This document shows positions 2,404 to 23,009 of a stretch of DNA of 64,000 nucleotides, in pieces. The position numbers and the translations under genes are program-made. The stretch spans positions 91,054 through 155,053 of IMG/VR virus record IMGVR_UViG_2974542590_000001; one strand, 5' to 3'. The first letter of the stretch is position 1. Each line of letters begins with the position of its first letter. Under the pieces are notes generated by a model that was not told the origin of the DNA, searched no databases, and was given only the letters and a program-made list of their open reading frames with translations. This stretch comes from a virus (Duplodnaviria; Heunggongvirae; Uroviricota; Caudoviricetes; Herelleviridae).

Positions 2404-3048
2404 TTAGTACCAACCGTTAGCTAACCAGAAAGCTTGTGCATTTTCCCATGAACCATAACGTCCTGCAACATAAGCATCTGCTACACGTTCTTGGTTTTCT
2501 GGTGAGTAGTCACCGTTTAAGTAAGATGAATCTAGTTGGTAACGTCCAATGTAACGTCCGTTAGTAGCTGAGTAAGAACCGCTAGATTCTTTTTGTGCAA
2601 TCCATTCTTTTGCTGAGTTAGATGTAACGGCAGGAGCTTGTTCTACTGGTTCTTGAACAACTGGTGCCTGTTCAACTACAGGTGTTTCTTCTACTACAGG
2701 TGTTTCTTCTACTACAGGCGCTTGTTCTACAACTGGTGTTTGTTCTACAACTGGTGCTTCTTGCACTGGTTGAGCTACAGGAGCTTGAACTTCACCGTTT
2801 AATGGTAATAATAGTTTGTCTCCAACATAAATCAAGTTAGCATCTGAAACTTTGTCTGAGTTTGCTTGGTGAATTAGGTTAAAATCAATTCCGTAACGAT
2901 TACCAATAGTTGATAATGTATCTCCGGATTCTACTTGCCAGTAAGTTTGTCCATTTTCTTGGATTTCGTCTGCGTGAGCTTTAGCTCCCAATCCTAATGA
3001 TAGTCCTAGTCCTAAAAGTCCTAATGTTGCAATTGTCGTTTTCTTCAA
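2404..3048 (-). CDS. secreted LysM-domain protein with Pro/Glu/Val-rich linker and Apf-like C-terminal domain
   Basis: Signal peptide MKKTTIATLGLLGLGLSLGLGAKA. LysM signature ...YWQVESGDTLSTIGNRYG.... Repetitive linker (PVVEQ)n. C-terminus ...AQAFWLANGWY resembles the Lactobacillus aggregation-promoting-factor family. Confidence 0.55.
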   Translation of the reverse strand: MKKTTIATLGLLGLGLSLGLGAKAHADEIQENGQTYWQVESGDTLSTIGNRYGIDFNLIHQANSDKVSDANLIYVGDKLLLPLNGEVQAPVAQPVQEAPVVEQTPVVEQAPVVEETPVVEETPVVEQAPVVQEPVEQAPAVTSNSAKEWIAQKESSGSYSATNGRYIGRYQLDSSYLNGDYSPENQERVADAYVAGRYGSWENAQAFWLANGWY

Positions 3049-3205
3049 GTTGTCGTTCTCCTTTGGGTTGTTTTAGTTTTATGTGTTGCTTACAGGAACT
3101 AATATAGCAAATTAATATTACAAAGGTAGTCCTAAATCATTACAGTTCTATTACATATTATTACAGTAATAAAAAAGACCCACCCGAAGGTAGGTCATTG
3201 TACTG

Positions 3206-4474
3206 TTACAATTTGTTAGTTCCACCAAGTTGTAACTGGTCAGAAATTCCTGTATTCCCTAATGGGTCGGAGCAGTAACGACTTAGGATATAGATGTCTT
3301 TACCACGTGCAGGAGATTTAGCATCTAGTGCATGAGCAAAAGCAAATCTACAGTTTCCTCGTTGCGCAATCGTTCCGTCATATAGTTTTTGAATATCAGG
3401 AGAAGCCTTGAATGAAGATTTTGTAACATCAAAACGTACGATTTCTTTATTTGTTTTCTTATCCATAATGAATAAGAAATGTTTGTCAGTATCTCTACGT
3501 TTAGAAGATAAGTGCCATCCGTGTAGTGTTACCTGACCTTTGTCACCTCTGATTACGTCTAAACAACCACGGTTAATTAATGCAGGGGCTTTAAAGACTT
3601 TATCTTTTACGTAAAGCTCTTCTTTGCTATCGTTGTTATAACGTAACAAGAAGTAATACTCTTTACCCATAAGATTTTGTGGAGTTAAGCCATTAACAGT
3701 AAAACCAACTTCTGCCCCGTTAGGGTTAGATGGGTATACTTTTTTAACGTCTTCACGAACTACACGTTTACCTTGGAAACGCCCAATTTCTTTGTTTGTA
3801 GCTTTATCCATAAAGTACAACCAGATAGATTGCCCTTTTGTAGACTTGCTAGGAATGAACCATCCTTGTACGTTAAATGCACCAGAGTTTACATTCACAA
3901 TATCAAAGAATGCTTGACGACCGTTTGTTTGACTAGGCTTAGGTGCGCTGTTATTTCCACCTGCCATAAATTGTTTTGCTTGGCGTACAACTTCGTCTAC
4001 GTTCATACCTCCGGGACATGCTGTTGAAGTCACTTCGTTATGACCTAAGACATGTTGGCGGTCACATGGGATACCGTAACGTTTACAAATATCTGCTACT
4101 AATCGAGCACAGTTTGTAACCGTACGAGGGTCAATTGACCAGTTAGGAGCACCACTTGAATTTAAGTTTTCGATACCGATTGAGCGTTGGTTAGGGTTAG
4201 ACATCTTAGGAATATCTGCACCACCAGTTCCTCCTGCGTGCCACGCTGCATATTGTTCACCTACGCAACCGATAATCTCTGTTGGAGTAACCTCATAGTG
4301 AGCAGATGTACCTGCACTACCACCCGCTACCCATGTGTTCATAGCAACATCCTTGTTTGTTGTTGCGTTGTGATGTAGAACAATGCGGTCAATAGCAATA
4401 CCGTTACGACTACCAGAGTTCATCAGTTTAGGGTTAACGCTTGTAATTAAATTACTAAATACTTCGCCTGCCAT
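3206..4474 (-). CDS. N-acetylmuramoyl-L-alanine amidase (amidase_2/PGRP) endolysin with two C-terminal binding repeats
   Basis: The amidase_2 region reads ...IDRIVLHHNATTN...AHYEV...CPGG. Two ~60-aa paralogous C-terminal repeats (..WLYFMDKATNKEIGRF.. and ..FLFIMDKKTNKEIVRF..). AGGAGG RBS 7 nt upstream of the ATG at 4474; the ORF track's 4501 start lacks an RBS. Confidence 0.65.
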   Translation of the reverse strand: MAGEVFSNLITSVNPKLMNSGSRNGIAIDRIVLHHNATTNKDVAMNTWVAGGSAGTSAHYEVTPTEIIGCVGEQYAAWHAGGTGGADIPKMSNPNQRSIGIENLNSSGAPNWSIDPRTVTNCARLVADICKRYGIPCDRQHVLGHNEVTSTACPGGMNVDEVVRQAKQFMAGGNNSAPKPSQTNGRQAFFDIVNVNSGAFNVQGWFIPSKSTKGQSIWLYFMDKATNKEIGRFQGKRVVREDVKKVYPSNPNGAEVGFTVNGLTPQNLMGKEYYFLLRYNNDSKEELYVKDKVFKAPALINRGCLDVIRGDKGQVTLHGWHLSSKRRDTDKHFLFIMDKKTNKEIVRFDVTKSSFKASPDIQKLYDGTIAQRGNCRFAFAHALDAKSPARGKDIYILSRYCSDPLGNTGISDQLQLGGTNKL

Positions 4475-13939: not shown

Positions 13940-14146
13940 AATTTGAATATTCTGATAATTTAACTATTTATAATCTTTTTTGAACTTTTTGTATTTAGTT
14001 GTTGTCAGGATGATAAAAATGTTGTATACTTTAGTTAGTGATTGACATACCTCAATTACTTCCTCTTTCTTTAAGTCTTTAACTATTGAGTAAGTTGCTG
14101 AATCAGTAGTTAAGAAAAAAGTTGTTAAGTTTGTAAAAAAGTTGCT

Positions 14147-14181
14147 AGTTCTATCAGCTTTTGTGTTATAATGTTGATAGA
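14147..14181 (+). promoter_or_regulatory. sigma-A-type promoter (TTGCTA-N17-TGTTATAAT) overlapped by a 10-bp-arm palindrome
   Basis: The promoter and palindrome read agTTCTATCAgcttttgtgttataatgtTGATAGAAct. Confidence 0.5.
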
Positions 14182-14254
14182 ACTAAAATTCACCTATGAT
14201 GAAACGGTATCATGACTGGCTGTTTTTTCTGACCTGTAATATTGTTTAACTTTT

Positions 14255-14677
14255 ATGCTAAACTCAAAACAGATTGGAAATATAACAGAAATAAAATGTA
14301 TGCTTGCCTTTTTAGAACAAGGATACAACGTTTTAACCCCCTATGGAGATTGTGAAAGATATGATTTTGTTGCTGATATAAAAGGAAATCTTGTTAGAAT
14401 TCAAGTAAAAACTTCAAAATTAGCAAGAAGAGGGAATGGTTTCAATTTCTCAATGAGAAGTAGCAATCGACAAAATGGAGCAATACTTCATCACCGATAT
14501 ACCAAAGAAGAAATTGATTTCTTCGCAACATATTATCAAGATAAATGTTATCTAGTTCCCGTTGAAGAGTGTGGAGCAGAAAAAACATTAAGACTTGACC
14601 CACCAGAAAATGGTCAACGTTATTCGATGGCTGAAGATTATGAATTGGAGGTTATGTTGAAACGATATTATGGCTGA
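14255..14677 (+). CDS. PD-(D/E)xK-family nuclease
   Basis: The motif ..CERYDFVADIKGNLVRIQVKTS.. has a D...(D/E)xK arrangement. Confidence 0.45.
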   Translation: MLNSKQIGNITEIKCMLAFLEQGYNVLTPYGDCERYDFVADIKGNLVRIQVKTSKLARRGNGFNFSMRSSNRQNGAILHHRYTKEEIDFFATYYQDKCYLVPVEECGAEKTLRLDPPENGQRYSMAEDYELEVMLKRYYG

Positions 14678-14815
14678 TGTAGAAAGCAACCAGTTCTTGT
14701 AGGTTCAAGTCCTGCTAGGTGAGTTGCTAGTCAAGATTACTTGGTTAGCAGATTCGTGTTTGTTAATAGCATGATAACCTCCCTCTTCCCCAAATTTAGG
14801 GAGGTTCCACCTTTT

Positions 14816-14887
14816 TGTTAGGTCGTCTAACAGGTAAGACACAATTCTTCGGAAATTGTGATACAGGTTCGAACCCTGTCCTGACAG
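14816..14887 (+). tRNA. tRNA-Arg (anticodon TCG)
   Basis: Hand fold: acceptor TGTTAGG/CCTGACA (one GU pair), D stem GTCT/AGAC, anticodon stem CAATT/AATTG with loop CTTCGGA, T arm ACAGG-TTCGAAC-CCTGT. Confidence 0.6.
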
Positions 14888-14901
14888 TTGTACAGTTACG
14901 G

Positions 14902-14995
14902 CTGTACAAACTATGTTTCTATGTTATAATGGTTGTAGGCTTTTAGAGACATCTCTCTTACCCCTGTTTAATTACAGGGGTTCCCTTTTTGCTTT
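14902..14995 (+). terminator. two hairpins downstream of tRNA-Arg (TTGTACAG-ttacgg-CTGTACAA, and CCCCTGT-ttaatta-ACAGGGG followed by TTCCCTTTTT)
   Basis: Read directly. The second hairpin has a U-rich tail. Confidence 0.45.
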
Positions 14996-15000
14996 TGGAA

Positions 15001-15098
15001 GGTTACTCGAATGGTTAAGAAGTGTTTAATTTGGTATCAGCCAAAGATATTGCAAACAATGACAACATCAGAGTGCAATTACAGAATATCTTCCATCA
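15001..15098 (+). ncRNA. degenerate type-II (Ser-like) tRNA-like element
   Basis: 5' GGAAGGTTACTCGAATGGTTAAGAAG is near-identical to the 5' end of the tRNA-Ser at 21089. The 3' ATCTTCCA can pair with the 5' end, but no canonical T loop is found. Confidence 0.25.
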
Positions 15099-15119
15099 AA
15101 AAAAAATAAAAAAACTTAC

Positions 15120-16230
15120 AAAAAGGTGTTTACAACTTTGTAATGTTATGCTATATTAGTATTACACCACAAGTTAGTGGTTAAAAATTGAAAACTTAAT
15201 AGATTTTGAACCTAGTGCAGAAAGTTTGAACAGCTTGCTAGGATAACGTGGCGTGAATCTGGATGTAACCGAAGGTGCGATAGTGCTTTTGGTTGCAGGT
15301 AGGTCTTATGGTAACATAGGAGTAACTATTAGTAAAAGCTAATATCAGTTAAGCGTTATGTGGAGTATACATGGATTGTAAGGTACAAGACTCTTGGGGG
15401 ATACAATAGACGTTCCTGTGGAAAAGAATCCAAGTTAGGTGGAAGTGTGAGAAGCTTGGCAGACCTTGGAAAACTCAAAAGACTCCCTTTGACGAGAACT
15501 GTAGAAATACAGGTTTAACAAGAGACCTTGGTACAAGTAGCTTAAGTCAGCGTTGGATGAAAATATTACAGAAGACATAAGGATATATGTTAATTAATAC
15601 TTTTAATAGCTGAATGTTTAGGTGAACGTTGTTAGCCACCGTGCTAGACCATACATTAAAGGCAGAGAGAAGCTATCGGGTAGCTCCCGATGGTTCAGCC
15701 TCTCTGAGTATGTGACCGAATGCAGTGAGTGTATATGAAGCAGGAAGAAAAGCCCTTAATCTATTAAGTTTTGAGTTTTTAAACATGTCACTGTGGCGGA
15801 AGTAGAAAATGCTATGGTAGTAAACCTGTTATGAGTAGTTTTTATCTATTAAGTTAACACTTTAATAGGCGTGAGTGGGGCAGTACCACTCCAGTGACTT
15901 AAAGAACCTACGGAAACAATCAATCTTATCGGATGCCGATTGGTTGGCTGAATTAAGCAGTGTGTCTGTGAATCAGTTAATAGGCATAAAATACTAGCAC
16001 AGACGTGTGCCACTCTCAGGTGTAGGTTAGGAGAGAAACATTAGCAACCGAGGGTTGGAAATGGGCGCTCAAAGTACACGAGCAAGGCGATGTCGGTAGT
16101 AATCGACGGAATCGGTGTAGGTTGCTTGATAGAGCTATAACTGCATCTCGTTTATGCGATGTGTTTTTTACAGATTAAATCATTCTAAGAGTGGTATTTT
16201 TATTTTACATAAAGGAGAGAATTTTCTCTT
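15120..16230 (+). ncRNA. ~1.1-kb ORF-free, GC-elevated, highly structured region
   Basis: No ORF of 60 aa or more on either strand, although flanking DNA is densely coding. TTTACA-N17-TATATT promoter at its 5' end. Multiple inverted repeats, e.g. CAGAGAGAAGCTATCGGGTAGCTCCCGATGG...CTCTCTG. Confidence 0.3.
15789..15907 (+). ncRNA. tRNA-like element bounded by GTCACTG...CAGTGAC (paralog of the 20515-20644 element)
   Basis: 5' GTCACTGTGGCGGAAGTAG... and 3' ...AGTGG-ggcagta-CCACT-CCAGTGAC. The same closing helix and TGGCGGAA motif occur at 20515. Confidence 0.3.
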
Positions 16231-16249
16231 TATTATTTTTATAGAAAGT

Positions 16250-16285
16250 GTTGACTTTCTGTACAACACATGATACTATAAGTTT
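16250..16285 (+). promoter_or_regulatory. phage promoter GTGTTGACTT-N17-TATACT
   Basis: gtgttgactttctgtacaacacatgatactataag. It lies upstream of the tRNA block. Confidence 0.5.
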
Positions 16286-16422
16286 ACAAGGTAAGCAGTA
16301 AGGGCTTGTAAGGTTCGAATCCTTAATTACCTATTCCACTTTTAATAGTGGCATGATTTAATTTCTATCTCTCATTATCTTACATTTTTCGGAGGGTTGC
16401 TAGTCCCTCCCCTCCGAATCTT

Positions 16423-16494
16423 GCGCTGTTGGTGTAGTGGCTATCATTTCCGGCTCCAACCCGGAAGACGGGGGTTCGAATCCTTCACGGCGTG
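16423..16494 (+). tRNA. tRNA-Trp (anticodon CCA)
   Basis: Anticodon stem TCCGG/CCGGA with loop CTCCAAC, D loop GTAGTGG, T arm GGGGG-TTCGAAT-CCTTC, and the acceptor pairs with GU pairs. Confidence 0.6.
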
Positions 16495-16636
16495 TATTTT
16501 TGGACAGCGGTGATAGTTATAGTGTATTATCCTTCACAGGAATGAATTACTGGTATGTAGCACTCTACTGGTAATTGTTGAAGAATGTGACGTGTTTACA
16601 AGATTAAAGTCATTCCGCCCCTCTCCATTGAAACAA

Positions 16637-16710
16637 GCTGATATTCCGTAATTGGTAACGGGACACACTTGTAATGTGTATACTTCTAGGTTCGAGTCCT
16701 AGTATCAGCA
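16637..16710 (+). tRNA. tRNA-Thr (anticodon TGT)
   Basis: Acceptor GCTGATA/TATCAGC is a perfect pairing. Anticodon stem ACACA/TGTGT with loop CTTGTAA. T arm CTAGG-TTCGAGT-CCTAG. Confidence 0.7.
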
Positions 16711-16812
16711 TTGTGAGCGGAAACTCACAAATTTATGTTTTGGTTGATTAATTGGTTATCTAGTTAGTTAGCGTGAACATTGCATACAGTTATCTATATA
16801 GAATTTTATCAA

Positions 16813-16884
16813 TAAGCTAGTTTTGTGTCTAGTGGTCTATGTGAGCTTCATAACCTCATGGCGGTTCGATTCCGTAAGGCTTAA
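16813..16884 (+). tRNA. tRNA with CAT anticodon (Met or Ile2); the D arm is weak
   Basis: Anticodon loop TTCATAA in a 4-bp stem. T arm GGCGG-TTCGATT-CCGTA. Acceptor TAAGCTA/AGGCTTA. An alternative perfect pairing GCTAGTT/AACTAGC suggests an extended precursor helix. Confidence 0.4.
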
Positions 16885-16902
16885 CTAGCTATTGGTAATC
16901 TT

Positions 16903-16976
16903 ATCTCCTTAGCTCAGTTGGTGGTAGCACCTGATTCTTAATCAGGGGGTCACAGGTTCGAATCCTGTAGGGGATA
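16903..16976 (+). tRNA. tRNA-Lys (anticodon CTT)
   Basis: Acceptor ATCTCCT/AGGGGAT, D loop AGCTCAGTTGGTGGTAGC, anticodon stem CCTGA/TCAGG with loop TTCTTAA, T arm ACAGG-TTCGAAT-CCTGT. Confidence 0.7.
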
Positions 16977-16978
16977 TT

Positions 16979-17052
16979 CTCGAAGAGTTGGTGTATGGCT
17001 TTGGTAACACGCCTCTTAGGAGGAGCAGGCAGTTCAAATCTGTCAGTCGAGA
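16979..17052 (+). ncRNA. tRNA-like element (T arm + acceptor) with no recognisable anticodon arm
   Basis: T arm GGCAG-TTCAAAT-CTGTC and 5/7-bp acceptor pairing CTCGAAG/AGTCGAG. The central region folds as CCTC-ttag-GAGG rather than an anticodon stem-loop. Confidence 0.3.
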
Positions 17053-17110
17053 CCCTTAGTTTTTCTATTAGTAACGGTTTTTCGAGAGGGTTATCTTGAA
17101 AAACACAACT

Positions 17111-17184
17111 GTCTCCATAGCTCAATCGGCTAGAGCACTCGACTTTTAATCGAGGGGTTCGGGGTTCAAATCCCTGTGGGGACA
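17111..17184 (+). tRNA. tRNA-Lys (anticodon TTT)
   Basis: Acceptor GTCTCCA/TGGGGAC, D stem GCTC/GAGC, anticodon stem CTCGA/TCGAG with loop CTTTTAA, T arm CGGGG-TTCAAAT-CCCTG. Confidence 0.8.
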
Positions 17185-17284
17185 TCGGTTAGTACATTAT
17201 GGTGCCACGGGTGTTTTGTAAGAGGGCACTTACAAGATAAATAAAGCAAGACAGCTTGCTTCCTGCGTAATTACTAACCTAGAA

Positions 17285-17357
17285 CGGCAGTTCGTCCAAT
17301 TGGCTAGGATGCTAGACTACGAATCTAGTGATAGAGGTTCGATTCCTCTGCTGTCGG
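17285..17357 (+). tRNA. tRNA-Arg (anticodon ACG)
   Basis: Acceptor CGGCAGT/GCTGTCG, anticodon stem CTAGA/TCTAG with loop CTACGAA, T arm AGAGG-TTCGATT-CCTCT. Confidence 0.7.
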
Positions 17358-17365
17358 TTAACATA

Positions 17366-17463
17366 CGGGAGTGGCGTGAGGCATACGCACCGTGGAAGAC
17401 ACGGGGAAGTTAATAATTCATGAATAAACCTTCCAATATCGCAGGTTCGAATCCTGCCTTCCG
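17366..17463 (+). ncRNA. 98-nt tRNA-like gene with long extra arm and 5-nt loop where the anticodon loop is expected
   Basis: Acceptor ACGGGAG/CTTCCGT, D stem GCGT/ACGC, extra arm GGAAG...CTTCC, T arm GCAGG-TTCGAAT-CCTGC. The stem CCGTG/CACGG closes the loop GAAGA. Confidence 0.3.
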
Positions 17464-17469
17464 TATAAA

Positions 17470-17500
17470 ATGCGGGTGTCAGAGGTTCAAATCCTCTCAC
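17470..17500 (+). ncRNA. isolated tRNA 3' fragment (T arm AGAGG-TTCAAAT-CCTCT + CACAGGT) with no 5' partner
   Basis: Only ~18 nt separate it from the preceding gene, and no complementary 5' acceptor strand was found. Confidence 0.3.
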
Positions 17501-17593
17501 AGGTATTTGCCTTAATTGGAAAACTATGACCTGTCGTTAGTTTACGTCTTACACTTTTGTGAAGAAACGTTTTTCGGGAGGTAGCTTTTATAT

Positions 17594-18031
17594 ATGAATG
17601 GAGGGGCAATTATGACATATAAAGTGTTACACGGAGAGGACAGTTTAGCGCCTCTGCTATGGACATTTTTTATTAGAGACGGACTATCTGTATCAGAAAC
17701 AGAAAGTTATAAATGTGTTGGTCAACGAGGACTAAATACAGATTATGTTCCACATGAACTAAGCCTTGATACACCTGTTATCTTTTATGAAATGAAGAGT
17801 ACTGTAGTATTTAAATGTGTTAACGGTGTGCAGGAAAAAACACCTTGTTTATTTTTTGATACATCCGAAAAAACTTGTTGTATTACGGAAGAACTATATG
17901 ATATTCTTGAAGAACTATATGGAACTGATATTTATTTCCTAGCTAAAACACTTGACCCAGAATTAGCATTGTCCTCCGTTTATTCAGAAGGTTGGTTATC
18001 TACTTTTATAGAGTTGAGACAGCAGGTTTAG
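17594..18031 (+). CDS. hypothetical protein
   Basis: 145-aa ORF with a GGAGG RBS region. Confidence 0.45.
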   Translation: MNGGAIMTYKVLHGEDSLAPLLWTFFIRDGLSVSETESYKCVGQRGLNTDYVPHELSLDTPVIFYEMKSTVVFKCVNGVQEKTPCLFFDTSEKTCCITEELYDILEELYGTDIYFLAKTLDPELALSSVYSEGWLSTFIELRQQV

Positions 18032-18106
18032 CACACAATAATAAGGAGTGGTTCCTGTGAAGAAAGTATTGTCTAAATTGTAAGTATCTATTAAGGAGGA
18101 CTTACA

Positions 18107-18358
18107 ATGAGTAGAAGTTACAGAAAACCCTATTACCGTTATGTTTGTATGAAGGATTCAACTGTTCGAGACATAAAAAGAATGGTTAACAGAAATTACA
18201 GGCATAAATTAAATCAAGGTCGTTTTGATGACGAAGTAACATTGACACATCATAAACGAGTAGAAGAAACTTGTTGGACGTATGATATGAAAAAATTTTA
18301 TGCTCACGAGGAAGATTACAAGGATAATAATTTTTATCATAAATTGAGAAGAAAGTAG
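18107..18358 (+). CDS. hypothetical basic protein
   Basis: AAGGAGGA RBS. 83 aa, Arg/Lys/Tyr-rich. Confidence 0.5.
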   Translation: MSRSYRKPYYRYVCMKDSTVRDIKRMVNRNYRHKLNQGRFDDEVTLTHHKRVEETCWTYDMKKFYAHEEDYKDNNFYHKLRRK

Positions 18359-18366
18359 GTAATATC

Positions 18367-18588
18367 TTGAAAGCAGATTATGTAGTTGCAGGAGACTGGG
18401 AAGGCATTTATCTTGATGATAAGCTTCAAGTAGAAGGACACAGTATACAAACACCAGATGCAATGAAACTTACTATTGAAAACGAAGTAACGGAGTTAAC
18501 TGTTTACGAGATTGACCAAGAGTATATGGAAGAGCTAGGTTCTCTACCAGAAAGTTTCTCTCAATTAGATTCGTCAAAACTTTTTTAA
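18367..18588 (+). CDS. hypothetical acidic protein
   Basis: 73-aa ORF, start uncertain. Confidence 0.4.
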   Translation: MKADYVVAGDWEGIYLDDKLQVEGHSIQTPDAMKLTIENEVTELTVYEIDQEYMEELGSLPESFSQLDSSKLF

Positions 18589-18599
18589 ATAAATTTATA

Positions 18600-18635
18600 T
18601 GTAAGTGTTGACTTTCCTTACAAGATGCTGTATAG
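18600..18635 (+). promoter_or_regulatory. phage promoter GTGTTGACTT-N17-TATAGT upstream of tnpB
   Basis: gtgttgactttccttacaagatgctgtatagtaattc. Confidence 0.5.
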
Positions 18636-18808
18636 TAATTCTTGTAAGGAACACATGATGGTGACTGTAGCCTAATGGTAAGGCAGTGTTCTGTGGAAAG
18701 AAATGTTCTGGTCTAAAAATTTTTGTCTTTTGACAACCGGCGGTGCACCCATCGGCGTCATAAAGAAATATATTCAGAATCAAGGGAACAATCATAAATA
18801 GAAAGCAG

Positions 18809-19960
18809 GTGAGCCTTATGGAACGACTAAAAGCATACAAATTCAGAATCTATCCAACAGAAGAACAAGAAATATTCTTTGCCAAATCTTTTGGTTGTGT
18901 CCGTAAGGTCTACAATCTAATGCTTGATGACCGAATGAAAACTTATGAAGAAACGAAGAATGACCCCTCTAAAAAAATGAGTTTTCCAACACCTGCGAAA
19001 TATAAAAATGATTTTCCGTTTTTGAAAGAAGTGGACAGTCTTGCTCTAGCCAATGCCCAACTTAATTTAGATAAAGCATATAAGAATTTCTTTCGAGATA
19101 AATCCGTTGGATTTCCTCGATTCAAAAGTAAGAAGAATCCAGTTCAAAGTTATACGACTAATAATCAAAATGGAACAATTGCTTTGATTGATAATAAATT
19201 TATCAAAATTCCTAAGTTGAAGTCACTAGTTAGAATCAAACTTCATAGACAGCCTAAAGGAATCATTAAGTCAGCTACAATATCACGTCATTCAAGTGGT
19301 AAATATTATATTTCCTTATTGTGTAAAGAAGAAATTATAGAATTACCTAAAACTAATTCTACAATTGGTATTGACTTAGGTATTATGGACTTTGCGATTC
19401 TTTCTGACGGACAAAAAATTGATAATAATAAATTCACGTCCAAAATGGAAAAGAAATTGAAACGTGAACAACGTAAGTTGTCTAGACGAGCTTTGGTAGC
19501 TAAAAAGAAAGGCGTAAACCTTTCTGAAGCTAAAAACTACCAAAAACAAAAACGTAAAGTCGCTCGTTTACACGAAAAAGTAGTGAATCAACGTACTGAT
19601 TTTCTGAATAAGTTGAGTACAGAAATTATCAAAAACCACGATATTATCTGTATTGAAGACTTAAACACAAAAGGTATGTTGCGTAATCATAAATTAGCAA
19701 AAAGTATTTCTGATGTGTCTTGGTCTAGTTTTGTAACTAAATTACAATACAAGGCTGACTGGTATGGACGAAAAATCATTAAAGTAGATAAATGGTTTCC
19801 ATCAAGTCAAATTTGTTCAGAATGTGGACATAAAGATGGCAAGAAATCTCTCGAAATTCGAGAATGGACTTGTCCTATTTGCCATACCCGACATGACCGA
19901 GACATCAACGCTAGTATAAACATTCTGAACGAAGGTCTACGAATACAATCACTAGTTTAG
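18809..19960 (+). CDS. tnpB: TnpB (IS200/IS605-family OrfB, RNA-guided RuvC nuclease)
   Basis: N-terminus MERLKAYKFRIYPTEEQE. C-terminal zinc finger CSECGHKDG...CPICHTRHDRDINASINIL (RuvC-III). GAGCC RBS. No tnpA nearby. Confidence 0.8.
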   Translation: MSLMERLKAYKFRIYPTEEQEIFFAKSFGCVRKVYNLMLDDRMKTYEETKNDPSKKMSFPTPAKYKNDFPFLKEVDSLALANAQLNLDKAYKNFFRDKSVGFPRFKSKKNPVQSYTTNNQNGTIALIDNKFIKIPKLKSLVRIKLHRQPKGIIKSATISRHSSGKYYISLLCKEEIIELPKTNSTIGIDLGIMDFAILSDGQKIDNNKFTSKMEKKLKREQRKLSRRALVAKKKGVNLSEAKNYQKQKRKVARLHEKVVNQRTDFLNKLSTEIIKNHDIICIEDLNTKGMLRNHKLAKSISDVSWSSFVTKLQYKADWYGRKIIKVDKWFPSSQICSECGHKDGKKSLEIREWTCPICHTRHDRDINASINILNEGLRIQSLV

Positions 19961-20160
19961 ATAAAAACAATAACCGTAGGAACTACGGGGATAGCTTGGT
20001 AAATAAGAGACACCGCTGTTAGTAAAAAAATAAACTATCAAGTATGCTCTATTCCCAAGAAGCTCCCACTTCAAGCGTAAGAAACCGCTAGGTTTAGCTA
20101 AGTGGTGAGTAGTTCACCCCATTCATAAGAAAAATGTTGATATATAAAGTGGTATTTTTT
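19930..20160 (+). ncRNA. expected omega-RNA / right-end region of the TnpB element (boundaries undefined)
   Basis: Placed by inference from TnpB-system architecture: the guide RNA scaffold overlaps the 3' end of tnpB and the right end. The sequence here is ORF-free and structured. Confidence 0.25.
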
Positions 20161-20449
20161 CAGAAGTGGGAAATCATAAATAATCTAGTTCACAAAGTGA
20201 TTATGTGGGTATGGCGGAATTGGTATATGATGTGAACTTCTCAGTTCAAGTCTGGGTGGAGGTATTACACATATAAAATAAAGTGCGAGGTCAATCATAT
20301 CATTACGATAGTGGATTGAATGATTAGGGTAAAAGACTAACAATCTCCTAATCTAAGAATAGGTAAGTTCCGTTAAATGTCACCCGTGTCCGTCTAAGTA
20401 CGTAAGGTAGAAGTTACACAAAGACAACTTTATTTTATTGGTTCCTTAG

Positions 20450-20515
20450 TGTAGTGGTTATCACATCGCCCTGTCACGGCGAAGATCACAGATTAAATTC
20501 CCGTCAGTTCCATAG
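20450..20515 (+). pseudogene. degenerate tRNA-Asp (GTC)
   Basis: 5' two-thirds is canonical (GGTTCCTTAGTGTAGTGGTTATCACATCGCCCTGTCACGGCGAAG). The T arm (CACAG-ATTAAAT-TCCCG) and 3' acceptor (CAGTTCC instead of AGGAACC) are not. Confidence 0.4.
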
Positions 20516-20644
20516 TCACTGTGGCGGAATAGGTAGACGTATAAGTAGCCAATACTAAAAACGTAGGGTATTTGGAGCTTATTTGAGGGATAGATAGGCG
20601 ACGGCTCGTTCCCAACTGCAAGGTGCAAATCCTTGCCAGTGACA
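20515..20644 (+). ncRNA. tRNA-like gene (Leu-like 5' end GTCACTGTGGCGGAATAGGTAGACG) with ~60-nt internal insertion
   Basis: Perfect acceptor GTCACTG/CAGTGAC and T arm CAAGG-TGCAAAT-CCTTG. The interior is far longer than any variable arm. Confidence 0.3.
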
Positions 20645-20807
20645 TAGACTGCCTTTGTCAAGCAGTCGAATCTTAACTAATTTTTTCACTAAATAAATAT
20701 CGAATTGTGGCTGATTTCTACGGATTCAGAGCGGAGCATCCCCGCAGGTTGGGCATACTACAGTCCCCCCATGATGCTTCATGGGTTATACATAGTTAGG
20801 GGGTAAC

Positions 20808-20993
20808 ATGATGTATTTAAAATTCATTGGTTTAAACGGAAGTTTAGGTTTAGTGAAGGACAAGACATACTTTGTTACCTCTGAGATAAATGAACATTAT
20901 ATTATTTTGAGAATACATGGTGTTCACGGTAGGACAGTAATGTGTCCGTACGAAGCATTAGAAAAAGTGTTAGAAAATTGGCAGGTCTGTTAG
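20808..20993 (+). CDS. hypothetical small protein
   Basis: 61-aa ORF after a GGGGG RBS. Confidence 0.4.
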   Translation: MMYLKFIGLNGSLGLVKDKTYFVTSEINEHYIILRIHGVHGRTVMCPYEALEKVLENWQVC

Positions 20994-21088
20994 TATGCAG
21001 ATAGTAGGGTGTGCATAAAGCCTAGGGAACAATATGCACAGAAGATTAGGTATTGTGTACTTGACACAAACCCGCCTGCTCCCGAGAC

Positions 21089-21175
21089 GGAAGGTTACTC
21101 AAACGGTAAAGAGGCTTGGTTGGAAACCAAGTAGATGTGTAACAGCATGTGTGGGTTCGAATCCCATGCCTTCCA
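21089..21175 (+). tRNA. tRNA-Ser (anticodon GGA), type II
   Basis: Acceptor GGAAGGT/GCCTTCC, anticodon stem CTTGG/CCAAG with loop TTGGAAA, long variable arm, T arm GTGGG-TTCGAAT-CCCAT. Confidence 0.6.
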
Positions 21176-21193
21176 TAGAACATGTAAGGAGAG

Positions 21194-21454
21194 ATGGACA
21201 TGAGCTTTATGACTGAACATTTAGCAACCATAGCTAGTAACATTGAAAAAGAAGCATTTGAAAAAGAAATTGAAGCTTCTAAACAAAAGCAAGCAGTAAT
21301 TAAACGAGCTAACCGTAAATTTAATTATGTTGAACCTTGTAAGATTGACTTTACACCATATAAAGGGAATGTACGTAAGTTTAAATCGGTTAGACATAGA
21401 AAATCACCTATTATTAGTAAACGACTAGCATTAAATCTAGTTTGGTTTTGGTAA
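21194..21454 (+). CDS. hypothetical protein
   Basis: AAGGAGAG RBS. 86 aa. Confidence 0.5.
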   Translation: MDMSFMTEHLATIASNIEKEAFEKEIEASKQKQAVIKRANRKFNYVEPCKIDFTPYKGNVRKFKSVRHRKSPIISKRLALNLVWFW

Positions 21455-21565
21455 GTTGTTTATCTAAAAACCTAAATAATAACTACTAAAGCTGTTTAAA
21501 GAGTTCGGTTTAAGTAGTTCCGGTTGGCTAGTCAACTAACAGTACTAGTCAATCAGTTTCTTTTT

Positions 21566-21625
21566 CGGGGAGTATCATAAGTAGACGTGTAAAAGCGTTT
21601 GGGGGTTCGAGTCCCGCCTCCTCGG
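21566..21625 (+). ncRNA. 60-nt armless tRNA-like minihelix
   Basis: Acceptor CGGGGAG/CTCCTCG and T arm GGGGG-TTCGAGT-CCCGC, with only ~25 nt between them. Confidence 0.25.
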
Positions 21626-21651
21626 TTCATTAAAGATAATGGAGGCTAATC

Positions 21652-22020
21652 ATGAGTTTTCGTAAAGGTAAACACAAGGAGCCTTCTAAGTGGCAAAGAT
21701 TTATTAAATCAATCATGGAAGTAGAAGGTGAAAACATGGAGGACACATTGTTTGAAAAAGCTTTTGATTCTTGGAAAGCAGGAGATAAGAGTGAAGAAGT
21801 ACAACGAGTTTTACTAGATTCTGGTTTAGAACAGTATAAAACTGGTGGTAAATATAATGTGGATGCTGTTAGAGAAATCTGTGAGAAAGCCCATAAAGGT
21901 GAGACTGTTTACAGGAAAGACAAGCATATCTTACAAGATTTCTATGAATGTTTAGAATGGGAAAACTTCCATACTGAAATTGAAGCAATTGAATTGTTTA
22001 CAGGAGTATCCTATATATAG
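21652..22020 (+). CDS. hypothetical protein
   Basis: GGAGG RBS. 122 aa. Confidence 0.5.
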   Translation: MSFRKGKHKEPSKWQRFIKSIMEVEGENMEDTLFEKAFDSWKAGDKSEEVQRVLLDSGLEQYKTGGKYNVDAVREICEKAHKGETVYRKDKHILQDFYECLEWENFHTEIEAIELFTGVSYI

Positions 22021-22049
22021 CCATATTTATAAATTAGGGGGTAATTGTT

Positions 22050-22214
22050 ATGAAATACACAGTTAAAAAAGGTGACACATTGTATTCTATTGCTAGAAAA
22101 TATTATGGCAAGCCTTGGTTATGGAGACTAATTTGGTTACATGGTCAGAATAGAAGTATTAAAGACCCTAATAAAATTAGAATTGGTCAAACAATTTATA
22201 TTCCGTTTAAGTAA
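22050..22214 (+). CDS. small LysM-domain protein (54 aa)
   Basis: Below the ORF-track length threshold. MKYTVKKGDTLYSIARKYYGKPWLWRLIWLHGQNRSIKDPNKIRIGQTIYIPFK. GGGGG RBS. Confidence 0.5.
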   Translation: MKYTVKKGDTLYSIARKYYGKPWLWRLIWLHGQNRSIKDPNKIRIGQTIYIPFK

Positions 22215-22222
22215 GTATATCT

Positions 22223-22281
22223 CCGTAGGCTAATCTATCCAATAGGACAGTGTTATACGGGTTCGATTCCCGTCTTGCGGG
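22223..22281 (+). ncRNA. 59-nt armless tRNA-like minihelix
   Basis: Acceptor CCGTAGG/CTTGCGG and T arm ACGGG-TTCGATT-CCCGT around a single CTAT/ATAG hairpin. Confidence 0.25.
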
Positions 22282-22394
22282 TTGCCCCTGCGGGTGGCTG
22301 AATGGTTAAAGCACACTGTCCCGAATGGATAAATTAAAAAAACTTACAAATAGTTGTTGACAGTATGTAAGTTTGTGTTATAATATATACATAC

Positions 22395-22512
22395 TTATAC
22401 GGGGAGTTATACCGTAAGTAGTAGCGGGGCTGACTGTAAATCAGTTGCGAAAGCTCGGGTGGTGCAACTCCATCACTCCCCATTAAAATAAAATGACCGG
22501 AGGTCACATAAC
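22395..22512 (+). ncRNA. structured 5' leader closed by GGGGAGT...ACTCCCC
   Basis: Lies downstream of the TTGACA-N17-TGTTATAAT promoter at ~22360 and upstream of the CDS at 22513. Confidence 0.3.
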
Positions 22513-22737
22513 ATGTCTAAATTTTATGGAATTATTTCAACAACTTCTACTCGTACAGAAGAGTACGAACAAAAGTTAAAAAACGGAAAGACAGTTAAGA
22601 AAACTCGTGAAATTACTGTGCCAAAAGAAGTTACAGTACAGTCTTCTCAACCAGACCGTTTAGGTGCTCGTAAAGAGCTAGAAGCTTTTGCACGTAAATG
22701 CAAAGGTACTGTTAAATATATTGGAGCTTTTAAATAA
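22513..22737 (+). CDS. hypothetical basic protein
   Basis: GGAGG RBS. 74 aa. Confidence 0.5.
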   Translation: MSKFYGIISTTSTRTEEYEQKLKNGKTVKKTREITVPKEVTVQSSQPDRLGARKELEAFARKCKGTVKYIGAFK

Positions 22738-23009
22738 GTTTCAATATATTTAAATTAATACTTGACAGTTTAAATAGCTTATGCTATTATAATGACAAGT
22801 TAAACGGTGGCCGCTAAACCGAATGTTTAACTGTCGGTTATTTGAAACTCATTCTTAATTGAATGGGTTTTTTATTTATAAAAGGTGTTGACTTACATAA
22901 TATTACATGTTATAGTTATGTTAGACAAAACATTACCATACAAAGGAGAAATGTCAGATACCATTTCTAGACAACCTAAAAGAAGAAACAACTGTTGGAC
23001 ATACAGAAA

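Follow-up and report, generated by a model that had tools for sequence, protein, structure and literature searches.

The accepted role of the nuclease TnpB, encoded by insertion sequences of the IS200/IS605 family, is to restore its own transposon after excision by the transposase TnpA. The guide of such a nuclease is taken from the DNA adjoining the right end (RE) of the element (PMC8612924, PMC10055086), and TnpB processes the 3' end of its own mRNA into the omega-RNA (PMC10278001). Only plasmids have so far provided a demonstration that TnpB alone can drive spread between genomes residing together: among their copies, a TnpB-driven, TnpA-independent bias was described (Mears et al. preprint, PMC11870625); for phages such spread is only a theoretical possibility, raised as 'non-restorative homing' into co-infecting phages (PMC13565253). 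The present analysis concerns a tnpB gene without a functional tnpA in a stretch of 64,000 nucleotides from a herellevirus (IMG/VR record IMGVR_UViG_2974542590_000001, positions 91,054 to 155,053; hereinafter, the window). Judging by its origin and anatomy, the element is in all likelihood the right-hand portion, left stranded in the phage, of an insertion sequence of the ISEfa4 family (IS200/IS605) that came from an enterococcal host. The best explanation of the locus as a whole, for which the chances are about even, is that this fragment acts as a selfish homing cassette.

In the region 17600–21600, the window is identical (100%) to Enterococcus phage EFP01 (KY549443.1), a Schiekvirus of the family Herelleviridae with the host E. 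faecium; a window position equals the position in the EFP01 record minus 91053. The tnpB open reading frame (ORF) is present in this GenBank record as the coding sequence EFP01_113, labelled only 'transposase'. Schiekviruses serve as therapeutic phages, and here this label does not imply an ability for DNA transposition.

The ORF lies at 18809–19960, where the sequence-only reading of this DNA, made without database searches, had located it; GTG 18809 is the mechanical start, and ATG 18818, with AGGTGA ahead, is the likelier one and also that of the GenBank coding sequence (Table 1). The same reading had recognized an IS200/IS605-type TnpB with a zinc finger and RuvC, and this assignment is confirmed by three Pfam domains, HTH_OrfB_IS605 (PF12323, 5.5e-20), OrfB_IS605 (PF01385, 1e-26) and Cas12f1-like_TNB (PF07282, 4.8e-25), all far over the cut-offs and arranged in the domain order of TnpB, with the helix-turn-helix at the N-terminus, then OrfB_IS605 (RuvC) and the zinc ribbon (TNB) at the C-terminus. 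The protein is aligned over its full length with ISDra2 TnpB, the structure of which is solved (E 1.6e-77). The RuvC D/E/D triad, for the loss of which the alignment was checked, is present: residues D186/E280/D362 align with D191/E278/D361 of ISDra2 TnpB, which, from the established literature, we take to be catalytic. Both CxxC pairs of the zinc finger are kept (CSEC at 333 and CPIC at 352), and EFP01 TnpB, aligned with 47 intact homologs from bacteria, matches 158 of the 158 columns with at least 95% conservation. By its domains, triad and zinc finger, EFP01 TnpB is predicted to be complete as a TnpB. No second TnpB was found elsewhere in the 64-kb window.

The ISDra2 TnpB–omega-RNA complex (structures 8EXA, 8BF8 and 8H1J) resembles that of EFP01 in the conserved triad and zinc-finger cysteines, as well as in the omega-RNA encoded at the 3' end of the gene and running to the RE. 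The differences are that ISDra2 is a complete transposon with tnpA, that its target-adjacent motif (TAM) is TTGAT, in contrast to TTTAA in the EFP01 family, and that the identity is only about 40%. ISEfa4 of E. faecium (IS200/IS605 family, IS605 group) shares with the EFP01 copy the omega-RNA/RE region (94–96.5% identity, the same end GTAGTTCAC), tnpB (88.9% nucleotide and 93.2% amino acid identity; ratio of nonsynonymous to synonymous substitutions, dN/dS, 0.06), the C-terminal remnant of tnpA (94% amino acid identity) and the family TAM TTTAA. Relatives closer than ISEfa4 are known only from metagenomes, namely, P0006 (98%, also tnpA-deleted) and P0003/L101 (99%).

Positions 18690–20125 (1436 nt) match hundreds of E. 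faecium plasmid loci with 88.6% nucleotide identity over the full length, and these loci are annotated as 'ISEfa4 family transposase' (tnpA) and 'RNA-guided endonuclease TnpB'. A scan of one genome per species revealed 80 loci, encoding TnpB of 64–93% identity, in enterococci and other Bacilli. All family copies end with ...GAGTAGTTCAC, followed by unrelated flanks, and their left end (LE) is preceded by TTTAA and then C; TTTAA was found 5' of the LE in 38 of the 41 parsable insertion sites, and T at position -5 in 40 of them. The TAM TTTAA was also published for ISAam1 TnpB (PMC11224200, PMC12908284), a genome-editing TnpB likened here to the EFP01 family by this motif only.

In EFP01, the RE is present at 20107–20117, as in all family members; its end at 20117 is fixed by about 60 independent bacterial insertions, beyond the RE of which the sequence is unrelated. 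The LE sequence AGGCAGAAGTCGCCC with TAM is absent from the window, and the left boundary is represented by the fusion of tRNA-His and tnpA. The absence of tnpA, claimed earlier from the sequence, was corroborated: only a C-terminal remnant of 36 codons is left, with residues 99–134 of ISEfa4 TnpA mapped by tblastn to 18691–18798 (94% identity, E 2.5e-20), and no other tnpA and no Y1 (HUH) transposase were found in the 64-kb window. Unlike ISEfa4, the EFP01 copy lacks the LE, the TAM and TnpA residues 1–98, cannot transpose, and is located in a strictly lytic Herelleviridae genome, fused to the 5' half of tRNA-His behind its promoter. With the LE, the TAM and most of tnpA lost by deletion, neither excision nor transposition of the element is possible any longer, not even in trans.

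The insertion site was defined by comparison with TnpB-less Schiekviruses, namely, vB_Edu_21C1, phiSHEF16, EfV12-phi1, CCS1, phage 113 and four IMG/VR contigs (empty-site sequences L002, L003, L087–L092 and L094). In these sisters, the same promoter is followed by an intact gene of tRNA-His(GTG), the spacer, ...ATATCTTAA|CCCATTCATAAGAAAAATGTTGATA..., and then the gene of tRNA-Leu. On the right-hand side, the homology of EFP01 to the sisters resumes exactly at CCCATTC past the RE, which places the insertion point after CTTAA (CTTAA|CCCATTC), a near-consensus TAM in the His–Leu spacer. The empty allele of the sisters reads CTTAA|CCCATTCATAAG, and the distance from the break to the insertion point is 122 nt. 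On the left-hand side, EFP01 contains tRNA-His up to ...CTGTGGAAA (18699), followed by GAAATGTTCTGG..., which is the interior of tnpA (in ISEfa4, ...TTTCTTTGGAAAGAAATGTTCTGG). The deletion junction was mapped by a three-way comparison of the window, the sister phage L002 and the ISEfa4 copies L004–L006; the hexamer TGGAAA is present in both partners, a pattern typical of deletions mediated by microhomology. About 586 nt were lost: from the phage, 122 nt with the 3' half of tRNA-His, the spacer and the TAM, and from the element, about 464 nt with the LE and TnpA codons 1–98 (about three quarters of tnpA). The truncation of tRNA-His was collateral damage of this later deletion, not of the insertion. 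The comparison with related genomes lacking the element, which had been proposed with the sequence-only reading, defined the right end and the target site; the left end is deleted in EFP01.

The 5' flank had been taken for a tRNA 5' half, and correctly so, since 18660–18699 coincides in every letter with the 5' portion of the tRNA-His gene annotated in vB_Edu_21C1 and phiSHEF16. No tRNA was called on this flank by ARAGORN or Rfam and no complete cloverleaf is formed; the 3' half of tRNA-His was not found anywhere in the window with up to three mismatches allowed. The further claim, of an insertion into a tRNA gene or its capture, with both flanks as halves of tRNA genes connected to the insertion, is very unlikely. 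It would explain the genuine tRNA-His 5' half and accords with the scaffold L101 described below; however, the break in tRNA-His adjoins the interior of tnpA at the TGGAAA microhomology, not the LE, while the RE adjoins the spacer 122 nt downstream of the break, beside the TAM-like CTTAA of the empty allele, the 3' half of tRNA-His is missing, and the tRNA-like sequence 3' of the element is also found in the TnpB-less contig L087. Insertion into the tRNA-His gene was rejected by the three-way junction comparison, and the empty sites place the insertion in the spacer.

An IStron or intron-like arrangement, in which the element would be spliced from the tRNA-His precursor and the tRNA would be functional, agrees with the position of the element after a tRNA anticodon loop; IStrons, consisting of group I introns and IS200/IS605 TnpB elements, occur in Firmicutes, including an example from E. 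faecium (PMC4227781). This arrangement is almost certainly not the case in EFP01. The region 14000–23000 contains no match to a group I intron or another ribozyme in Rfam at E up to 1, the 3' exon is absent together with the 3' half of tRNA-His, and the sequence past the break is tnpA coding sequence. An intron or IStron was rejected, as there is neither a ribozyme match nor a 3' exon.

A full-length element of the family, comprising LE, tnpA, tnpB (TnpB 99% identity) and RE, was found in L101, a metagenomic scaffold of 2.6 kb (ENA ERZ28574727 scaffold_18062, 1–2628). Its LE directly follows CTTTTAA, containing the perfect TAM TTTAA, of a phage tRNA-Lys(UUU) gene interrupted within the anticodon loop, so that anticodon loops of tRNAs are among the possible targets of the ISEfa4-type family. 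Since both the EFP01-site comparison and L101 indicate that the C after TTTAA is the first base of the LE, the TAM of the family is read as TTTAA. The RE of L101 occupies the His–Leu spacer position described for EFP01; an ISEfa4-type tnpA is combined with an EFP01-type tnpB, and further to the right another jump connects the T arms of tRNA-Leu(TAG) and tRNA-Ser. This single short scaffold may represent either two copies, at the tRNA-Lys(UUU) and His–Leu sites, which were recombined or collapsed by the assembler, or a deletion variant. No second example of the L101 arrangement was found, and the two tRNA-Lys junctions gave 0 matches in IMG/VR.

The omega-RNA had been expected in the ~200 nt after the stop of tnpB. 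The interval from the stop to the RE is 157 nt (19961–20117) and contains a conserved structured scaffold, predicted at approximately 19972–20117, which ends exactly at the RE and the 5' end of which may lie upstream of 19972. The last 145 nt before the RE have 94–96.5% identity to ISEfa4, in comparison with 88.9% for the ORF. RNAalifold analysis of 37 distinct family members showed 38 pairs in 8 helices, with standard pairs in 97.6% of cells and both-sided (compensatory) changes in 9 pairs. None of 500 column shuffles reached any of five measures, and in the control with slid 3' partners the pairing fell to 27–47%; since the shuffles disregard relatedness, it is the compensatory pairs and the slid controls that carry the weight. 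The EFP01 omega-RNA alone has a minimum free energy z-score of -2.7.

The covariance check proposed earlier thus succeeded among the family members, while known Rfam scaffolds gave a sub-threshold match only: no curated omega-RNA family of Rfam reaches the threshold, and Ref70 (RF02841, 'Enterococcus sRNA 70') matches 19968–20099 (+) end-to-end but below threshold, with 29.7 bits at a gathering score of 115. This match was used as a lead, not as evidence. Ref70 and the EFP01 scaffold have the 5' hairpin AACnGUAGGnACUACnGG in common, and Ref70 itself probably represents an omega-RNA, belonging to a different TnpB element of enterococci, and not a free-standing small RNA (sRNA). Taken together with the gene, the presence of an intact, expressible nuclease–RNA unit in EFP01 is probable.

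By the IS200/IS605 rule given above, the guide would be encoded by phage sequence just past the RE (Table 1). The 25 nt from 20118 are matched perfectly in 9 of the 12 TnpB-less sister phages, where CTTAA stands ahead of them. Among the remaining three, EFDG1 (L093, ~1085–1110) and phiSHEF13 (L095, ~1083–1108) have 4–6 mismatches in the TAM-proximal 8 nt, and in UTI-EfS3 (L096) the region, with tRNA-His and the spacer, is replaced; these alleles would escape the EFP01 guide. In EFP01 itself, the TAM position is occupied by the RE end ...GTTCAC, and there is no TAM there; because of this, the EFP01 copy would be protected from its own guide. The combination predicted for a homing cassette, a target in most element-free alleles and a lost TAM in the allele bearing the element, is accordingly found at this locus.

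The phage-type promoter which the sequence-only reading had placed ahead of tnpB was found as TTGACT-17-TATAGT. It is the best promoter-like site in 18300–20500 and the only strong one upstream of tnpB, and 18608–18636 is conserved as the tRNA-His promoter in the TnpB-less sisters. The deletion left tnpB 182 nt behind it, and no terminator-like site was found on the + strand between the promoter and tnpB or the omega-RNA; the tRNA-His promoter is presumed to drive tnpB. As a side observation, a 9-bp inverted repeat, CCTTACAAG...CTTGTAAGG, at 18616–18650 (+) brackets the -10 of this promoter, is conserved in the sisters and looks like an operator.

Nuclease-dead TnpB derivatives acting as regulators are known, for example, the TldR proteins. 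Such derivatives are also mentioned in PMC12908284. Together with the position of the gene behind a strong phage promoter, they speak for domestication of TnpB, with a role that is not that of a nuclease or not selfish, for example as a TldR-like guide-RNA-directed repressor or as a weapon against host DNA. For EFP01, a role of this kind is highly improbable: the triad and every highly conserved column are intact, the arrangement of omega-RNA and guide is the unmodified transposon layout, the guide corresponds to adjoining phage sequence and not to the promoter of another gene, and the cassette is too young for domestication to show.

Table 1. Features of the tnpB locus of Enterococcus phage EFP01 (positions in the window)
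Feature	Position	Strand	Description
Sigma-70-type promoter	18608–18636	+	TTGACT-17-TATAGT; 10/12 matches
Truncated tRNA-His(GTG)	18660–18699	+	G-1, acceptor 5' strand, D arm, anticodon stem 5' strand, anticodon loop
Deletion junction	18694–18699	+	TGGAAA common to tRNA-His anticodon loop (cTGTGGAAAc) and tnpA (tTTGGAAAg)
tnpA 3' remnant	18700–18801	+	Last 36 codons (TnpA residues 99–134) and stop; HUH motif absent
tnpB	18818–19960	+	380 aa; predicted intact RNA-guided RuvC nuclease gene
Omega-RNA scaffold and RE	19972–20117	+	Ends ...GAGTAGTTCAC
Guide-encoding flank	20118–20137	+	CCCATTCATAAGAAAAATGT; phage sequence just past RE
Degenerate tRNA-Leu(TAA) homolog	~20205–20275	+	Outside the element, 87 nt beyond RE

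The homing cassette would have arisen as follows. According to the comparison of empty and occupied sites, the element transposed into the tRNA-His/tRNA-Leu spacer at CTTAA|CCCATTC, with the RE against CCCATTC, and was then stranded by the loss of the approximately 586 nt that separated two hexamers TGGAAA. The genes of TnpB and omega-RNA would then be read as one transcript from the tRNA-His promoter, TnpB would process the guide RNA, and the guide would be directed to the unoccupied allele of sister Schiekviruses, where CTTAA is followed by a perfect match. In a mixed infection, the empty allele would be cut, and repair from the TnpB-bearing genome would copy the cassette, together with the tRNA-His truncation, into the competitor. 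The outcome would be TnpA-independent homing, a gene drive akin to the free-standing homing endonucleases in the tRNA region of T4.

Homing as the reason why the cassette persists has a chance somewhat short of even. The most far-reaching form of this explanation, that a TnpB–omega-RNA unit devoid of transposase and LE owes its survival in lytic phages solely to its action as an RNA-guided homing endonuclease against co-infecting sisters, is put forward tentatively and is rather doubtful.

Two described systems are comparable. In the TnpB gene drive in multicopy plasmids (PMC11870625), inheritance is likewise biased to element-bearing copies by cutting element-free ones, independently of TnpA; the drive was shown there for complete elements on plasmids, whereas in EFP01 the genome is that of a lytic phage, the fragment is non-mobile and the activity is only inferred. 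In the homing of T4 SegB, and in intronless homing or marker exclusion (PMC13565253 and references therein), as in EFP01, a nuclease gene located in the tRNA cluster of a phage has the corresponding site of related phages as its target, and by analogy the EFP01 cassette would be preferentially inherited with co-conversion of flanking markers. The differences from SegB are that recognition in EFP01 would be provided by a guide RNA and a 5-nt motif, not by a protein, and that self would be told from non-self by whether the element is there, and not through substitutions. Other Schiekviruses contain genes of HNH or GIY-YIG-type endonucleases in the same region.

All components of the locus, namely, the ISEfa4-family TnpB, the omega-RNA and microhomology deletions, are already known. 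The EFP01 locus nevertheless represents a natural test case, with an apparently intact nuclease and guide, transposition impossible, the target conserved in the available sisters and the cassette present on several backbones. If the homing explanation is true, the locus would provide the first example in nature of TnpA-independent ('non-restorative') homing by TnpB from virus to virus, and also a side route from a transposon nuclease to a free-standing weapon of phage–phage competition.

A protein search revealed the same arrangement in three further phage contigs, all metagenomic and each from an independent sample, L097 (ENA ERZ27310192, 70.7 kb, TnpB 99%), L100 (Logan SRR31546738, TnpB 100%, the contig ending within the omega-RNA) and L104 (ENA ERZ24991164, TnpB 97%). 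The junction of tRNA-His and tnpA is identical in all three, and the right junction is identical in L097 and L104; the junctions of the cassette and of the L101 arrangement are represented by the k-mers GTGTTCTGTGGAAAGAAATGTTCTGG, TAGTTCACCCCATTCATAAG and CTCGACTTTTAACAGAATTAGG. Between EFP01 and L097, the 1417-nt cassette has 14 differences, 12 of which lie in one 44-nt patch, while the 662 nt to the left of the cassette have 24 differences. The cassette of L104 differs from that of EFP01 in the same manner as L097, with three or four patches. The cassette is tied to at least three left-flank haplotypes, each sharing stretches with TnpB-less phages. Because the same junctions and a nearly identical cassette sit on differing flanks, these data point clearly to a single origin of the cassette followed by its transfer between phage backbones. 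As a signature of co-conversion, the flank haplotypes and the divergence of the cassette, far lower than that of its flanks, are inseparable from background mosaicism, which explains them equally well.

As a separate observation, the differences in tnpB among the four phage copies are found only in dense short patches (19033–19057, 19194–19237, 19270–19396 and 19940–19964), and the sequences are identical between them; this pattern suggests gene conversion with other, host-borne, family members during infection.

Several observations weigh against homing. Within the GenBank phage collection, the cassette is present in EFP01 only, that is, in one of about 37 Schiekvirus records, and an exact search with the right junction found no match in either IMG/VR or JGI metagenomes; from an efficient drive, a higher frequency than this would be expected. 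The motif CTTAA of the sisters deviates from the family consensus TTTAA by C in place of T at -5, and since T occupies this position in 40 of the 41 natural sites, cleavage of the empty allele may be weak. Short recombination blocks occur throughout the Schiekvirus flanks. Because the flanks are mosaics everywhere, the several flank haplotypes need no nuclease-driven conversion, and ordinary recombination can account for the transfer of the cassette. The phage copies diverge by 0–1%, and the cassette is young; for this reason the intact ORF does not testify to selection within the phage. Nor was the dN/dS of 0.06 accepted as a sign of such selection, as it accumulated in the bacterial lineage and the phage copies are too alike to be informative.

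The rarity of the cassette, the non-consensus motif, the low divergence and the mosaic flanks speak for another explanation, an inert recent remnant of the same origin, without effect on the phage, a young near-neutral passenger moved by ordinary homologous recombination; so do the differences between copies, which are patches of gene conversion, not selected changes. This alternative has appreciable weight, below an even chance, and is nearly as likely as the homing cassette. Against it stand the intact ORF, omega-RNA and right end in all four phage copies, the perfect match of the guide to a conserved sister allele and the high activity of the family in the host, with hundreds of copies. Moreover, because the deletion set tnpB directly behind a strong conserved promoter, some expression of the gene would be hard to avoid.

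The opinion that TnpB elements are uncommon in large virulent phages, expressed in the sequence-only reading, was overstated. Relatives at the DNA level were found in seven named large phages, namely, Brochothrix phage A9, Bacillus phages Shbh1 and BSP12, Geobacillus phage E3, Lactobacillus phage 3-521, Listeria phage LPJP1 and Staphylococcus phage JDF86, and IMG/VR contigs of 130–200 kb also contain TnpB relatives. An ISEfa4-family element with 88% TnpB identity is present in another phage (L111/L127, ~2700–4300; IMG/VR UViG 3300020216_000016 and 3300010165_000005), where the LE and RE are intact, tnpA has an internal deletion and the element lies 380 nt upstream of a tRNA-Trp/Asn/Tyr cluster. 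Family copies with deleted tnpA also occur in the bacterial or conjugative-element contigs L098, L099, L102 and L103.

The 3' flank had also been described as tRNA-like. Homology to tRNA-Leu(TAA) exists there: the first ~45 nt of 20205–20275 are homologous to the 5' part of the tRNA-Leu(TAA) of the sister vB_OCPT_CCS1, and the sequence is divergent afterwards. No tRNA was called at 20205–20275 by ARAGORN or Rfam, even with introns allowed, and no complete cloverleaf is formed; ARAGORN with introns on 20150–20750 gave low-stringency, implausible calls only. The same degenerate form of tRNA-Leu and the same downstream sequence are present in the TnpB-less IMG/VR contig L087. The 3' tRNA-like sequence was therefore rejected as a part of the element, to which it is unrelated, and is assigned by its sequence to the variable tRNA cluster of the phage.

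Other RNA genes and tRNA-like sequences were noted in the vicinity. A full-length ROOL RNA is located at 15187–15773 (+), between tRNA-Arg and tRNA-Trp in the phage tRNA cluster (Rfam RF03087, 264.8 bits, E 3e-60). Downstream of the cluster, two adjacent weak sub-threshold matches to Rfam were found at 22235–22335 and 22403–22480 (+), to YrlA (Y-RNA-like, 27.6 bits) and tRNA (27.7 bits), respectively. A tRNA-like unit at 20516–20645 (+), not called by ARAGORN and Rfam and not annotated in the record, has an acceptor stem of 7 perfect base pairs (GTCACTG...CAGTGAC), a start resembling a D arm and the T arm CAAGG-TGCAAAT-CCTTG; its counterpart in vB_Edu_21C1 (L002, 3975–4097) has a wholly different inner insert of ~70 nt. 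A tRNA-Asp(GTC)-like sequence without an ARAGORN call, scoring 37.6 bits with the Rfam tRNA model, lies at 20440–20512 (+), and at the corresponding place several sister phages contain the gene of transfer-messenger RNA (tmRNA).

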